NCBI GenBank assembly: GCA_018302545.1
Contig: JAGVZM010000002.1
Coordinates: forward strand, 2,198-66,197
Direction: 5' to 3'
Length of the DNA stretch: 64,000 nucleotides
DNA from: Candidatus Woesearchaeota archaeon
GTDB lineage: Archaea > Nanobdellota > Nanobdellia > SCGC-AAA011-G17 > GW2011-AR18
Part shown: positions 9,046 to 62,666 of the stretch, piece after piece
Layout: every line of letters begins with the position of its first letter
Numbering within the stretch: the first letter of the stretch is position 1
Program-made: the position numbers and the translations under genes
Notes under the pieces: model-generated
What the model was told of the DNA's origin: nothing
Database searches by the model: none
The model's input: the letters and a program-made list of their open reading frames with translations, nothing else

Positions 9046-9169
9046 GGGCCTGTAGCTTAACCTGGGAAAGTACACGACTGAAGCTCGTGTTATTGTGACT
9101 GATTAACAGGAATTGTTAGTTGGCAATAAGGTTCAAATGAGCTTGTCTCTGAAATTCCCACCGGGCCCA
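9046..9169 (+). tRNA. tRNA-Phe (anticodon GAA) with two predicted introns in the T-arm (9098..9129 at 51/52; about 9139..9156 at 60/61)
   Basis: acceptor GGGCCTG/CGGGCCC, D-arm GCTT-AACCTGGGA-AAGT, anticodon arm CACGA-CTGAAGC-TCGTG; splicing yields T-arm GTGGG-TTCAAAT-CCCAC; both inserts flanked by 4-bp central helices and 3-nt bulges (BHB). Confidence 0.55.
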
Positions 9170-9929: not shown

Positions 9930-10448
9930 ATGAATTCAAAAAAAGGTGCGATTGAACTTTCTATGACTACTATCATAGTTATTGTATTAGGAGTAACTTT
10001 ACTAATTTTAGGTTTGGTTTTTGTAAGAGGAATATTTGATAAGTTAGGAGGATTAACAGAAAAGTCCTTCTTGATAGCAGATAAAGAATTACAAGATAGA
10101 ATTGGAGCTTCAGATAGAATCTATGTCCCCGGAGTGGACTTTGAATTAGAACCGGGAGCATCAACAACAATCACAATTGGAATACAAAATCTTGCAACAA
10201 ACGACGAAGCAACACCATCAACTTTTAAATTAGAAGTGAAACCTGGAGATGAAGCAAGTAAAAGATTAAAAGTAACTCTACCTCCAGAACAAAGCCTAAG
10301 GATAGGACAAAGTAAAGGATTACCTCTAAAGGTGCAATTACCAGAAGGTTCAAATCCTGGAACAAGTTATTCTTTAACTATTAGAGTTCTAAAAAATAAA
10401 GAATTATATGATGAACAATCAATATTCATTTCTGTAAAAAAATCTTAA
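9930..10448 (+). CDS. type IV pilin-like protein with class III signal peptide
   Basis: MNSKKGAIELSMTTIIVIVLGVTLLILGLVFV: KG followed by a charged residue then a hydrophobic helix; Thr/Ser-rich beta-rich C-terminal region. Confidence 0.45.
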   Translation: MNSKKGAIELSMTTIIVIVLGVTLLILGLVFVRGIFDKLGGLTEKSFLIADKELQDRIGASDRIYVPGVDFELEPGASTTITIGIQNLATNDEATPSTFKLEVKPGDEASKRLKVTLPPEQSLRIGQSKGLPLKVQLPEGSNPGTSYSLTIRVLKNKELYDEQSIFISVKKS

Positions 10449-50289: not shown

Positions 50290-53200
50290 TTATTTACTCT
50301 TTTTTAAATCTTTTCTATTCCTAACATTAAAAATAGAGTAGTAAACAATCAATAAAACTAAAGCAAAAACTAAAGCCCCTATGCCCCAACCAGGAATATT
50401 GTTGGATTCAAAACCAGTAGCACAAACCCCTACAACTCTAAGCGGACTACTCAAACCCATTGCTGTAGCTTCTGCTTGAGTTATTTGATTGGTATTACAA
50501 ACATCAAAACCTAAAGCTGCAAAATTCTGACCACAAGTAACCTCAACATCATCCAACTCTCCATCATTATCTAAATCAATACAACTCTTAAGATTAACAA
50601 AGGACGTCCCAGGAATACCTCTTGTACAAGATTGGCAACAATTAGGTTCATTTATATTACCAGATAAAGAAAGATTACCATTACAAGCTTCACCAACACC
50701 GCATAAATATCCTCTAACACTACCGCAACTAACTGATCCTCCACCAGGACCTCTACCTATTATACTTCCACAATCGTTTCTACAAACACCATCACCACAA
50801 CAAGTCATTCCTCCAAGACAGTCATTATTATTAAGACACTGCCCTCCTATATTAGTAATTCCAGTATACAAAAGACAACTAGGACAAAAACTAGAATTAA
50901 ATCCTCCTAAAGCATTTTCTAGATCAGAAACAGGACCATAATGAATCCAACCTAAGTAAAGATAAGTAGCATTCATAGGAGCAACATAATTAAAATTTAT
51001 TATACCATTCAAAACAGGTATAGCTGTTAGAGTATCTAAAACTACAAGAGAATTAGTATCATTAAATCCAACAACAAAGCTAGTTGCATATCCTGAGAAT
51101 ATTGAAGAACCTCCTCCAAAAGTTGGATCTTCTCTTACACAACTACACTGCAAACTAACTGTTTGACCAACAACAGCTGTAACCATCATTCCTCTATTAG
51201 TTATTGCAGTTCCATTGTTCCAGACACATTCAGTTTGACAAGTATTAGAACAAATAGGATCAGGAAGAACTCTACAAATACCAGAATTCGCACCTTGTTG
51301 AAGAGCGCTACTTCCACTATTAAGATCACAATAAAATCCAGTGCCTAAGGAAGAACAATCATTATTACTACTACAAGTAACAACCTCACATAAACTAGTT
51401 GAAGGATTACAAACCTCAGTTAACCCACAGTCATTATTGGTATTACAAATTGAACAAGTTCCAGTTTGACAAATCAGACATTGCCCAACTAAAGGATTGC
51501 TAGTTCTTAAACATCTTGCATCAGGATAATTCTGACAAGTTCTACCAATCCTACAACCAGAAACACACTGACATCCATCACAAACTTCCCCAATACTACA
51601 ATCACTATCAAAAACACAACTAGCATTAACAATATGAAGTAATTGATCATTTCTATTTCCAGAATCACAAATTAAATTATTATTTGTAGAATTTAGAAAA
51701 TTAAAAGCATATCTTCCCTCATCTAAAAAAGCAGAAGATAAGAAACCAGTACTACCAAAACGAATTGGTGAATAATTACCATATGAAAAAGAGTTATTAT
51801 CTAAATCTCTTAAAGTAAAATTCAAAGATCCACTATTCAAAACATTTCCTTGTGAATCTAACAAACAAGAAAGATAACCTATAGCAGAGTCTCCCTCTTC
51901 AATCGTTAAATTATATCCATTACCGCTATGTAAAATACGGCCGTCAGTCCAATTACAAGAAGGATTACAATTTAAACCTAAATTAGGATCTCTAACTTGT
52001 AAAACCCCTCTAAAGTTATCTACAGAATTACAATTAGGATTAGGAGCACCACCAACTGTAAATATATAAACCCCAGGAGTAGAAGGAACAAAAGATCTAA
52101 TAGCATTACCATTAGTAACACCAATATTAGTATCCACTAAAACAGGGGCAGTTAAACTATTAAAGATATTATAAATCACCAAATTTGTATTTGTGCTATC
52201 TAACAAAGCACCAGAAGAATCTTGTAAACATGAAGCATTTATCATAACATTATCTCCTGTGTTTACACTAACAACATTAGGACCTGAAAGATAATTCCCT
52301 CCTTCCCACTGACAACCAAGATTACATGATACACTAGAAGCTGCCCTAAGAAGACAACTAACTTTATTTCCATCATTATTACAAGAGTAATTAGGATCAC
52401 AAAAATATTGTCCTAATTGATAAACATTTTTACAAGAAGCAAAATCACCAGAACAACTCCATCCATCAGAGACATAACCACAAAGACCTTGATGAGTACC
52501 ACCACCAATTTGAGGACTAACACAAATATTAGTAGAAATATCACAAGTTTCTCCAAGATTACAATCAGAGTTACTCAAACATCCAGGTCTACAAAGACCA
52601 CTAGAAAAATCACAAAAATTACCACTAGGACAAGTAAAACTTTGAGAAGAACAAGTAAAAGTACAAATACCAGGGCTAGCAACTCTTAAATCACAAGTTT
52701 CTCCAAGATTACAATTATTGTTGCTCAAACATCCAGGTCTACAAATTCCAGAAATAGTATCACAATAATTTCCCGAAGTACAAGGAGCATTTTGTCCACA
52801 ATTGTTAGGTGATTGAATTCCACAAATTCTAGTATTAGGATCACAATAATTAGAGCTACACTCTATGTTATTATTACATGAAAGTCCATCAGTTTTTTTA
52901 GGATCACACGAAACACCACTTCCTATATTACTGCAATAATAATTAGTATTACAAAAATATTCTGATGCAGTTAGACCCGAAACTTGTTTACAAGAAGTAA
53001 AATCCCCTGAACAATACCATCCATTTATAGTATCCCCACAATATCCAATATAATTAGTTATAGTAGTTCCACCACTTTGTTGTCCAATAACACAAGTATT
53101 AGTAGTAAAGTCACAAGTCTCACCAGTATCACAAAATTGATTTATTTGTCCACAAGGAGCTCCAGGTATAGCAAAAACAAGTTCAATAGAAAATAAACTA

Positions 53201-53304
53201 ATTAAAACAGCAATAAGTAAAAATAATCCCCTCTTTAACATATAAAATAGAACATCAAAATAGCTATTTAAAATTATTCTTTTAATCAGACCAGATAGAA
53301 ACAA
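50290..53304 (-). CDS. giant (1004 aa) cysteine-rich cell-surface protein with tandem Cys modules and C-terminal TM anchor
   Basis: N-terminal TM/signal; repeated CxSGNxCDxxSGxCRPGCLSNxxCNLGETCD modules; C-terminal GIGALVFALVLLIVYYSIF then basic tail. Confidence 0.55.
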   Translation of the reverse strand: MFLSGLIKRIILNSYFDVLFYMLKRGLFLLIAVLISLFSIELVFAIPGAPCGQINQFCDTGETCDFTTNTCVIGQQSGGTTITNYIGYCGDTINGWYCSGDFTSCKQVSGLTASEYFCNTNYYCSNIGSGVSCDPKKTDGLSCNNNIECSSNYCDPNTRICGIQSPNNCGQNAPCTSGNYCDTISGICRPGCLSNNNCNLGETCDLRVASPGICTFTCSSQSFTCPSGNFCDFSSGLCRPGCLSNSDCNLGETCDISTNICVSPQIGGGTHQGLCGYVSDGWSCSGDFASCKNVYQLGQYFCDPNYSCNNDGNKVSCLLRAASSVSCNLGCQWEGGNYLSGPNVVSVNTGDNVMINASCLQDSSGALLDSTNTNLVIYNIFNSLTAPVLVDTNIGVTNGNAIRSFVPSTPGVYIFTVGGAPNPNCNSVDNFRGVLQVRDPNLGLNCNPSCNWTDGRILHSGNGYNLTIEEGDSAIGYLSCLLDSQGNVLNSGSLNFTLRDLDNNSFSYGNYSPIRFGSTGFLSSAFLDEGRYAFNFLNSTNNNLICDSGNRNDQLLHIVNASCVFDSDCSIGEVCDGCQCVSGCRIGRTCQNYPDARCLRTSNPLVGQCLICQTGTCSICNTNNDCGLTEVCNPSTSLCEVVTCSSNNDCSSLGTGFYCDLNSGSSALQQGANSGICRVLPDPICSNTCQTECVWNNGTAITNRGMMVTAVVGQTVSLQCSCVREDPTFGGGSSIFSGYATSFVVGFNDTNSLVVLDTLTAIPVLNGIINFNYVAPMNATYLYLGWIHYGPVSDLENALGGFNSSFCPSCLLYTGITNIGGQCLNNNDCLGGMTCCGDGVCRNDCGSIIGRGPGGGSVSCGSVRGYLCGVGEACNGNLSLSGNINEPNCCQSCTRGIPGTSFVNLKSCIDLDNDGELDDVEVTCGQNFAALGFDVCNTNQITQAEATAMGLSSPLRVVGVCATGFESNNIPGWGIGALVFALVLLIVYYSIFNVRNRKDLKKSK
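52541..52745. repeat. intragenic direct repeat (two about 55-nt copies, about 90% identical, 52541..52595 and 52691..52745)
   Basis: TCACAAGTTTCTCCAAGATTACAAT...CTCAAACATCCAGGTCTACAAA occurs twice; encodes repeated Cys module. Confidence 0.5.
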
Positions 53305-55093: not shown

Positions 55094-55202
55094 AGTCCCG
55101 TCGTCTAGATTAGTTTAAAAACTAAAGACAACGGCCCAGGATCGAGGACTCTGGATCAATAGGAGAAATCCTTGGACGGCAGTTCGAATCTGCCCGGGAC
55201 TA
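55094..55202 (+). tRNA. tRNA-Gln (anticodon CTG) with two predicted introns: D-loop (55109..55131, 23 nt) and canonical 37/38 (55155..55167, 13 nt)
   Basis: acceptor AGTCCCG/CGGGACT + A; T-arm GGCAG-TTCGAAT-CTGCC; anticodon arm GAGGA-CTCTGGA-TCCTT after splicing; D-stem strand GTCT pairs intronic AGAC mimic (central BHB helix) with 7-bp intron hairpin. Confidence 0.6.
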
Positions 55203-61456: not shown

Positions 61457-61530
61457 TGGGCCCGATGTGATTTGAACACACGACCCCTACCTTATCAGAG
61501 TAGTGCTCCACCAAGCTGAGCTACGGGCCC
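61457..61530 (-). tRNA. tRNA-Ile (anticodon GAT), intron-less
   Basis: reverse complement GGGCCCG-TA-GCTC-AGCTTGGTG-GAGC-A-CTACT-CTGATAA-GGTAG-GGGTC-GTGTG-TTCAAAT-CACAT-CGGGCCC-A. Confidence 0.85.
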
Positions 61531-61557: not shown

Positions 61558-62373
61558 TTATAAAGATTTTGGGAAGCTTTTATAGAAAGAATAAGGGTCT
61601 AAATCTCCTTTAAGAATTAATTCTCTTTGTGGCAAATTAGTATGAGTAGGACAAAAACCAAATTTTTTCCAAACTAAATATTTAGTTAAATGCTTTCGAG
61701 AATTAAAACTAATAGTTTTCATCCATTTTTCTAACATATATTCACCAGAAATTTCTAATTGATTAGAGATATGGGTCTTTTCATATCTTTTCTTTGGAAA
61801 ATTAAATAAAGTAGATGTTTTGAAATTTAATTCTAATAATTTTTCATTAATTTGAGAAACTAAAGAAAATGAGCTAGAATTAAAACTAATAACTGGATAA
61901 GAATGATAAGTATTTTTTCGTTCCTTAAATGTTAAACAAAAATCAGAATCAGCCAAACCTCTAATAAAATCATTAAGAAATCTAGGTTCGAGTATAATAG
62001 AAGATATAAGATGATTAACTTTTGGACCAACTGGAAAATTAAGGGAAGTACTAAGAAAAGTAAAAATACCTTTGGATTGAGTAGACAATTTAAGGAAATC
62101 TCCTGAGTCCCTATAAATTTCATAGATCCTCAAGTTTTTATTAAATAATTTTTTAAACAATTTTACAAAAAAAATTCTATAAAAAATAGATTCATCTATC
62201 AAATGTCCGGCATATTCTAAAGAATAATAATATTTTTTAGGGTTTCCAAGATGGCCGTCACCCCAATGAATCCCTGAAAAATAACTTAATTCTCTAGTTA
62301 ATTTTGTGGGAATATTGATCTTATGAGAGAGGTCATAATTACTATATTGCACATTAGAAACGTCTAAATTCAT
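61558..62373 (-). CDS. free-standing LAGLIDADG endonuclease-like protein (two motifs)
   Basis: motif 1 FSGIHWGDGHLG, motif 2 FIRGLADSDFCLTF about 105 aa apart. Confidence 0.5.
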   Translation of the reverse strand: MNLDVSNVQYSNYDLSHKINIPTKLTRELSYFSGIHWGDGHLGNPKKYYYSLEYAGHLIDESIFYRIFFVKLFKKLFNKNLRIYEIYRDSGDFLKLSTQSKGIFTFLSTSLNFPVGPKVNHLISSIILEPRFLNDFIRGLADSDFCLTFKERKNTYHSYPVISFNSSSFSLVSQINEKLLELNFKTSTLFNFPKKRYEKTHISNQLEISGEYMLEKWMKTISFNSRKHLTKYLVWKKFGFCPTHTNLPQRELILKGDLDPYSFYKSFPKSL

Positions 62374-62455
62374 TTAACTAATTAAAGAAAAAAGATTTAA
62401 AAGCTATATTTGAATTTTTCCGAAAATATTTCAGAAAAGTTGTGAAGAACATAAA

Positions 62456-62580
62456 CGCCCTAGGCGGGACTCGAACCTGCGACCCCTTGATCTCTGCTCA
62501 GTAAGTAACAGTTTCACAGTCGTTATGTAGAACACAAGTGCTCTACCTGTTGCTCCCTAATAGGTCTGAGCTACTAGGGC
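62456..62580 (-). tRNA. 125-nt tRNA with two predicted introns (D-loop 62550..62565, 16 nt; anticodon region about 62492..62527, 36 nt); anticodon probably TCT (Arg), identity uncertain
   Basis: acceptor GCCCTAG/CTAGGGC + G, T-arm GCAGG-TTCGAGT-CCCGC (one A-C mismatch), D-stem GCTC/GAGC; D-loop intron has intronic GAGC mimic pairing GCTC plus 3-nt bulges; mature anticodon arm CTTGT-GTTCTAA-TCAAG. Confidence 0.55.
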
Positions 62581-62666
62581 GTCTAAGAATTAGGCAACTA
62601 AAATTCTTTAAAAGCTTTTCTAAGATAAAAAATAGAATAAAAAAGAGTAAAATTATAAATTAGAGT

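Follow-up and report, generated by a model that had tools for sequence, protein, structure and literature searches.

Evidence for a tRNA-Asn(GUU) gene with three short introns and a seven-nucleotide anticodon exon in a Woesearchaeota archaeon

The window analysed here, i.e. the whole 64,000-nt stretch of DNA (~29% GC), carries on its minus strand a tRNA gene of 125 nt (62456..62580), which comes to 73 nt once spliced and in which CCA is not encoded. The acceptor stem is a perfect 7 bp with a discriminator G, the D-arm reads TAGCTCAG...GGTAGAGC and the T-loop GGTTCGAGTCC. An intron-bearing archaeal tRNA of this length had been recognized here in an initial annotation made from the sequence, and this part of it proved to be real, since the 7-bp acceptor, the D-arm, the T-loop and the discriminator G were all found. 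In minus-strand order the gene consists of GCCCTAGTAGCTCAG ACCTATTAGGGAGCAA CAGGTAGAGCACTTG TGTTCTACATAACGACTGTGAA ACTGTTA CTTACTGAGCAGAG ATCAAGGGGTCGCAGGTTCGAGTCCCGCCTAGGGCG. According to our analysis the locus is very probably a tRNA-Asn(GUU) gene of a member of the Woesearchaeota (DPANN), composed of four exons (15, 15, 7 and 36 nt) and three short introns (16, 22 and 14 nt) at positions 15/16, 30/31 and 37/38. The protein encoded next to this gene has an identical counterpart that NCBI lists under Candidatus Woesearchaeota archaeon, and topoisomerase VI genes adjoin the neighbourhood, both of which point to a DPANN archaeon as the source. No second tRNA-Asn was seen within the 64-kb window. 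T-rich tracts lie 3' of the gene. On its 5' side a BRE/TATA-like element (AGAAAAGCTTTTAAA) is the putative promoter of tRNA-Asn, and an element of this kind is found at equal distance in most of the orthologous tRNA-Asn loci. The coordinates of all features are given in Table 1.

Table 1. Features of the tRNA-Asn(GUU) locus and of the other tRNA genes in the 64-kb window
Feature	Coordinates	Strand	Description	Basis
tRNA-Asn(GUU), whole gene (very probable)	62456..62580	-	four exons, three introns	acceptor/T-arm architecture scan, ARAGORN on spliced product, orthologs
Exon 1	62566..62580	-	nt 1-15: acceptor 5' strand, U8, A9, D-stem 5' GCTC, A14, G15	
Intron 1	62550..62565	-	16 nt, ACCTATTAGGGAGCAA, D-loop 15/16	
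Exon 2	62535..62549	-	nt 16-30: D-loop remainder with G18 G19, D-stem 3' strand, A26, CTTG (27-30)	
Intron 2	62513..62534	-	22 nt, TGTTCTACATAACGACTGTGAA, anticodon stem 30/31	
Exon 3 (micro-exon)	62506..62512	-	7 nt, ACTGTTA, nt 31-37; anticodon GTT 62507..62509	
Intron 3	62492..62505	-	14 nt, CTTACTGAGCAGAG, canonical 37/38	
Exon 4	62456..62491	-	nt 38-73: A38, TCAAG, variable loop GGGTC, T-arm, acceptor 3' strand, G73	
Putative archaeal promoter	62607..62621	-	purine-rich BRE and TATA box, AGAAAAGCTTTTAAA	27-41 nt upstream of tRNA-Asn nt 1
LAGLIDADG homing-endonuclease homolog	61558..62373	-	free-standing, two-domain, 271 aa	family profile
tRNA-Ile	61457..61530	-	intronless	ARAGORN default, Rfam
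tRNA-Gln(CUG)	55094..55202	+	109 nt; introns 55109..55131 (23 nt, 15/16) and 55155..55167 (13 nt, 37/38)	
tRNA-Phe(GAA)	9046..9169	+	introns 9098..9129 (32 nt, 51/52, 11-bp inner helix) and 9138..9155 (18 nt, 59/60)	

Removal of local positions 16-31, 47-68 and 76-89 from the gene leaves a 73-nt product that is called tRNA-Asn(gtt) by ARAGORN. Its cloverleaf comprises a 7-bp acceptor, a 4-bp D, a 5-bp anticodon and a 5-bp T stem, with all five anticodon-stem pairs of the Watson-Crick type and a loop reading C32-U33-GUU-A37-A38. Without the micro-exon neither the A31-U39 pair nor the loop bases C32-U33-GUU-A37 would be complete. The bases U8, A14, G18G19, U33, T54-T55-C56 and A58 are all present in the spliced tRNA and unchanged in the exon alignment. 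The known identity set of tRNA-Asn consists of the anticodon GUU and G73; in the gene under study these correspond to GTT at 62507..62509 and to G73 at 62456, both of which are invariant in nine orthologs. At T-stem positions 51:63 (62466/62478, minus) the window and its ortholog L006 have a mismatch, A51.C63, and all other tRNA-Asn orthologs have a Watson-Crick pair (C-G or A-U). The initial annotation had tentatively assigned the gene to Arg(UCU) and had placed two inserts in it, the second being 36 nt in one piece within the anticodon loop. On the evidence of the syntenic orthologs and of the spliced product the isotype is Asn(GUU), and the 36-nt insert is in fact a 22-nt intron, a 7-nt exon and a 14-nt intron, so that the gene holds three introns. 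As the outcome that would overturn it, that annotation had named a different isotype with a single canonical intron; the isotype is indeed a different one (Asn), whereas the introns number three.

Orthologs were located via homologs of the downstream 271-aa ORF (61558..62373, minus; 40-62% identity), and the contigs were then inspected. Wherever a tRNA lies directly upstream of the ORF homolog in the other distinct loci (8/8), it is tRNA-Asn(GTT); in L040 (Diapherotrites) there is no tRNA upstream of the ORF homolog. The same-strand order tRNA-Asn, ORF, tRNA-Ile is kept in the window and in L006, L031, L033 and L035, with the ORFs at ~40-60% identity. Scanning a genome collection with the 3' half of the gene returned mostly bacterial Marinococcus tRNAs and unrelated archaeal tRNAs sharing the acceptor/T-arm; the only true orthologs among these matches were L006, a Candidatus Nanoarchaeia MAG and the closest genome match, and L019. 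The orthologous genes differ widely in their introns. The gene is intronless in L033/34 (73 bits with Rfam), is interrupted only in the D-loop at 15/16 in L035/36 and only at 53/54 in L039, carries introns at 53/54 and 59/60 in L029/30 and L031/32 and at 30/31 and 37/38 in L038, and has the same three introns as the window (15/16, 30/31 and 37/38) in L037 and L006/L019. One and the same tRNA-Asn thus holds zero, one, two or three introns across five sites (15/16, 30/31, 37/38, 53/54 and 59/60), a pattern that looks like rapid gain and loss.

The relatives without anticodon-region introns show the exon sequence in one piece. In L029 the anticodon arm reads A CTTGA CTGTTAA TCAAG GGGTC, which equals the window pieces CTTG, A CTGTTA and A TCAAG GGGTC, and the micro-exon ACTGTTA is identical in nine of nine orthologs. 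When the exons of the nine orthologs (window plus eight) are aligned on their own, 98.9% of the cloverleaf cells are paired and both sides have changed in 11 pairs, values that were equalled in none of 500 shuffles; when the register is slid, pairing amounts to only 31-47%. Pairing in the anticodon stem reaches 100%, and four pair types occur at its pair 28:42. L006 spliced in the same way also gives tRNA-Asn(gtt), with 28:42 changed from U-A (window) to A-U and hence compensated. The intron differences between the window and L006 are confined to loops.

The intron junctions were set by homology and not by structure, so that a bulge-helix-bulge (BHB) motif at these junctions constitutes an independent test. 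BHB geometries were enumerated exhaustively, with a 4-bp helix H between two 3-nt bulges and the cut between bulge bases 2 and 3 (marked ↓ in what follows). For intron 1 the motif has H = GCTC(10-13):GAGC(26-29), the bulges AG↓A and AA↓C and the inner helix CCT/AGG. With four of four H pairs, an outer helix of 0 bp and an inner helix of 3 bp it belongs to the relaxed HBh' type, and it was matched by 8 of 20,000 shuffled introns (p = 0.0004). The unconstrained MFE fold yields the same motif. The 16-nt D-loop insert of the initial annotation (62550..62565), with GCTC:GAGC pairing, 3-nt bulges and a CCT/AGG hairpin, was therefore exact by both BHB enumeration and MFE folding. Site and frame of this intron are common to L006, L037, L035 and the tRNA-Gln of the window, and the inner helices differ: CCT/AGG is replaced by GGTT/AACC or GGGTT/GGCCC in L037 and L035, with the frame AG↓N...GAGCAA↓ kept.

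Intron 2, which is also present in L006, L037 and L038, shows H = CACT:TGTG, the bulges TG↓T and AA↓A, an outer helix of 2 bp and the inner helix GTT/GAC (hBHBh'; p = 0.0027, 20,000 shuffles). Three of its four H pairs form in the window, where there is a U.U mismatch, and all four form in L006 and L038. Intron 3, conserved in the same three orthologs (L006, L037 and L038), has H = CTGT:GCAG (4/4), the bulges TA↓C and AG↓A and the inner helix TT/GA (p = 0.0064, 20,000 shuffles). Its outer helix is 1 bp long as long as intron 2 is present (HBh') and 5 bp without intron 2 (hBHBh'). For ten further introns, from the orthologs and from the tRNA-Gln and tRNA-Phe of the window, BHB shuffle tests gave results from 0/20,000 to p = 0.007. 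By nearest-neighbour energy the BHB conformers reach -18 to -20 kcal/mol versus -25.3 for a non-BHB fold with the helix 47-51/82-86, and local folding of the anticodon region failed to separate the competing models. The folding energies do not refute the three-intron model, because BHB recognition is protein-dependent, and they give no support to it either.

The start of intron 2 (TGTTCTAC) resembles the micro-exon together with the start of intron 3 (TGTTACTTAC) (62513..62534 vs 62492..62512, minus), and ACTGT occurs twice in the gene, at local positions 61-65 and 69-73. Intron 2 may have originated when the anticodon-loop region was duplicated locally. The resemblance also explains how a false anticodon loop could be seen within the intron.

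The gene is presumably expressed, and the motifs permit a splicing path to be proposed. The archaeal tRNA splicing endonuclease (EndA) would cut at six sites, each time between bases 2 and 3 of a 3-nt bulge; an RNA ligase would join the four exons into the 73-nt tRNA, and CCA would be added after this. Only 7 nt separate the 30/31 motif from the 37/38 motif, and both use the exon bases C70 and T71, such that the outer helix of intron 2 (G40-C70, A39-T71) competes with the central helix of intron 3 (70-73/84-87). The 30/31 intron would likely be removed first and the 37/38 intron second, because the 37/38 BHB gains its 5-bp outer helix only after removal of intron 2. For the D-loop intron, being of the HBh' type, a broad-specificity endonuclease would be needed.

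A decaying pseudogene, i.e. a former tRNA-Asn in which insertions have accumulated and which is no longer processed to a functional tRNA, is a highly improbable description of this locus. It would account for the failure of Rfam and default ARAGORN to find the gene, for the A51.C63 mismatch in the T-stem and for the U.U in the central helix of intron 2, but the exons are intact and covary so as to keep their pairing across the orthologs. Moreover, the three inserts keep their BHB frames in the window, L006, L037 and L038, substitutions and indels within the introns fall in loops only or are structurally compensated, the promoter element is conserved, and the window has no other tRNA-Asn.

The assignment to tRNA-Arg(UCU), with a D-loop intron and a second intron of 36 nt at 36/37 or 37/38, rests on a TCT (62529..62531) that sits within the 30/31 intron and was taken as the anticodon. 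Removal of local positions 16-31 plus either 53-88 or 54-89 likewise leaves 73 nt, the 53-88 excision has a BHB-like motif (H 4/4, inner helix 2 bp), and the helix 47-51/82-86 is thermodynamically favourable. In the product, however, position 32 is a G and U31.U39 is a mismatch; ARAGORN reads neither the 36/37 nor the 37/38 product as Arg, the register being shifted to give CUA or CUG. Furthermore the putative anticodon varies between UCU (window, L006), UCA (L037) and UUU (L038) in sharp contrast to the invariant ACTGTTA, and the syntenic orthologs that lack these introns are unambiguously tRNA-Asn. tRNAs reading ANN codons normally have A37, and the G37 of the 36/37 variant would be unexpected in such a tRNA. 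The same 3'-half pattern is found in L009 and L025, distant Arg(UCU) genes with one intron or none; even so, the Arg reading must be judged extremely improbable. An amber-suppressor or Pyl-like tRNA(CUA) in a shifted register, in which the anticodon stem would have 6 bp and the variable loop 3 nt, is likewise extremely improbable. The form spliced at 54-89 is labelled tRNA-Pyl(cta) by ARAGORN, but this label derives from the anticodon string alone, the stem would hold one G.A mismatch and two G.U pairs, the compensation T44-A94 to A44-T94 in L006 fits the standard register, and the gene differs from tRNA-Pyl in its canonical G18G19, its T-loop and the two bases that separate its acceptor stem from its D stem.

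Further two-intron registers, from 35/36 to 38/39, as well as a strict-BHB register with a 75-nt product, were tried and rejected, all of them having a mismatched or shifted anticodon arm.

Standard tools do not recover the three-intron tRNA-Asn. Default ARAGORN and Rfam at its gathering threshold missed it and found only tRNA-Ile, and in permissive Rfam scans (E <= 5-10) the unspliced gene stayed undetected. Among the orthologs the score of the Rfam tRNA model (RF00005; gathering threshold 29 bits) falls with intron load from the value of intronless L033 (73 bits) to 59.5, 48.9 and 31.2. A scan for tRNA architecture (7-bp acceptor next to a T-arm) gave three convincing loci in the window, i.e. 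the gene under study, 55094..55202 and 61457..61530; T-arm pattern matches at 10347, 11100, 18315 and other positions were discarded as coding sequence. ARAGORN -i proposed Ser(tga) with one 28-nt intron (62455..62581), a call that was rejected since its variable arm is not credible. In L038 (808..910) default ARAGORN miscalls the two-intron tRNA-Asn as tRNA-Phe(gaa), with the GAA taken from intron 2. Near the LAGLIDADG ORF, L039 (2043..2161, plus) and L038 (1792..1922, minus) have over-long Rfam tRNA matches of 119 and 131 nt (45 and 38 bits), which are probably further intron-bearing tRNA genes and possibly interrupted tRNA-Ile.

For annotation this means that such a gene is either missed, as by default ARAGORN and Rfam, or miscalled, as Ser by ARAGORN -i, as Phe in the ortholog and as Arg in the initial annotation. 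Because the finders miss the gene, genomes of this lineage appear to be without tRNA-Asn, and probably without other tRNAs too, and an apparent absence of this kind distorts completeness estimates and inference of the genetic code.

The other interrupted tRNA genes of the window show a comparable picture. In tRNA-Gln the 15/16 intron has the bulges AG↓A and AA↓C as in tRNA-Asn, with the D-stem GTCT pairing an intronic AGAC, and the spliced 73 nt are called tRNA-Gln by ARAGORN. In tRNA-Phe the anticodon arm is intact and both BHB introns are located in the T-arm; the spliced 74 nt are called tRNA-Phe by ARAGORN, and the gene itself (9046..9169) is missed by default ARAGORN and by Rfam. The initial annotation had counted three tRNAs with two introns each, which holds for Phe and Gln but not for the gene under study with its three; its view of the window as unusually rich in multi-intron tRNAs is confirmed by a total of seven introns in four tRNA genes. 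The published extreme is Pyrobaculum calidifontis with 71 introns in 46 tRNA genes, and the density in the window is at or above this extreme, albeit in a very small sample. This suggests a burst of intron accumulation outside of, and independent of, the Thermoproteales. The nine tRNA-Asn orthologs also form a series, already at hand, in which introns are gained and lost within one gene, and snapshots of this kind have been requested by reviews on the spread of BHB introns.

tRNAs with multiple introns are established in Archaea, with a published maximum of three per gene in the Thermoproteales (PMC4033280; PMC8450103), and a dependency in intron removal has been described for two- and three-intron archaeal tRNAs in the tRNAscan-SE 2.0 paper (PMC8450103). 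A gene structure of this kind is already known in other archaea, and with its three introns the window gene stands at the known maximum; cases in DPANN are expected and poorly catalogued. The Thermoproteales (Pyrobaculum calidifontis, Thermofilum pendens; Sugahara et al. 2007/2008 via PMC4033280, PMC8450103) resemble the window gene in having multiple introns per tRNA, introns that may be so closely spaced that the BHB of one cannot form until another has been removed, HBh' motifs of the relaxed type, and genes that are missed by standard tRNA finders. They are hyperthermophilic Crenarchaeota, however, whereas the host of the window is a DPANN member of the Woesearchaeota with ~29% GC and probably mesophilic. 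Their EndA is an (alpha-beta)2 enzyme with a CSL loop, in contrast to the L3-loop alpha4 or other types of the DPANN literature, and the type of the host is presumably different from theirs. Unlike in the Thermoproteales, the introns of the window tRNA-Asn are very short (14-22 nt) and AT-rich.

Pre-tRNA-Glu(UUC) of Methanopyrus kandleri (PMC5829648) likewise combines a relaxed HBh' D-loop intron with a canonical 37/38 intron, but it has two introns, belongs to a euryarchaeon and is of another isotype than the three-intron tRNA-Asn. According to Kaneta et al. the D-loop HBh' intron of this M. kandleri tRNA-Glu needs a broad-specificity EndA, and L3-loop EndAs occur in DPANN, where they are associated with increased tRNA disruption (PMC5829648). 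Within the same superphylum, known DPANN tRNAs have non-canonical and multiple BHB introns like the window tRNA-Asn. In ARMAN-2 tRNA-Pro has introns at 53/54 and 59/60 (PMC3239211), a pair of sites shared with the tRNA-Asn orthologs L029 and L031, while the gene in the window uses 15/16, 30/31 and 37/38 instead. Missing tRNAs in DPANN were already flagged by Kaneta et al. 2018 (PMC5829648), and incomplete predicted tRNA sets in this group have been ascribed to undetected disrupted genes. The passages of the DPANN literature consulted for this study mention neither a three-intron tRNA nor a 7-nt anticodon micro-exon.

The ORF between tRNA-Asn and tRNA-Ile belongs to a family in which 14 of 14 aligned members match PF14528. 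Among PDB entries the profile of the family finds intein endonuclease domains, 2dch and I-DmoI, and the aspartates of the motifs, D39 and D142, do not vary within the family; searches of Pfam and PDB with the 271-aa ORF of the window alone gave no significant match. In L006 (5569..6382) two overlapping ORFs of 166 and 119 aa take the place of a single LAGLIDADG ORF, which reflects either a frameshift or pseudogenisation, or else an assembly error. Five insertion sites are used in tRNA-Asn among relatives whose neighbouring ORF remains 40-62% identical. A mechanistic link between the LAGLIDADG gene and the fast turnover of introns in tRNA-Asn can be envisaged but is very unlikely. Endonuclease breaks in or near the tRNA gene might, for example, be repaired with gain or loss of an intron, or introns might be selected for destroying a cleavage or integration site. 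If such a link were true, the locus would be a natural system for watching the movement of BHB introns.

An ORF of 1004 aa elsewhere in the window (50290..53304, minus) has a very high content of Cys, Asn, Ser and Gly and contains repeats of CxxxC-type modules; its N-terminus bears a hydrophobic segment and its C-terminus a transmembrane anchor. It probably encodes a large protein of the DPANN cell surface.
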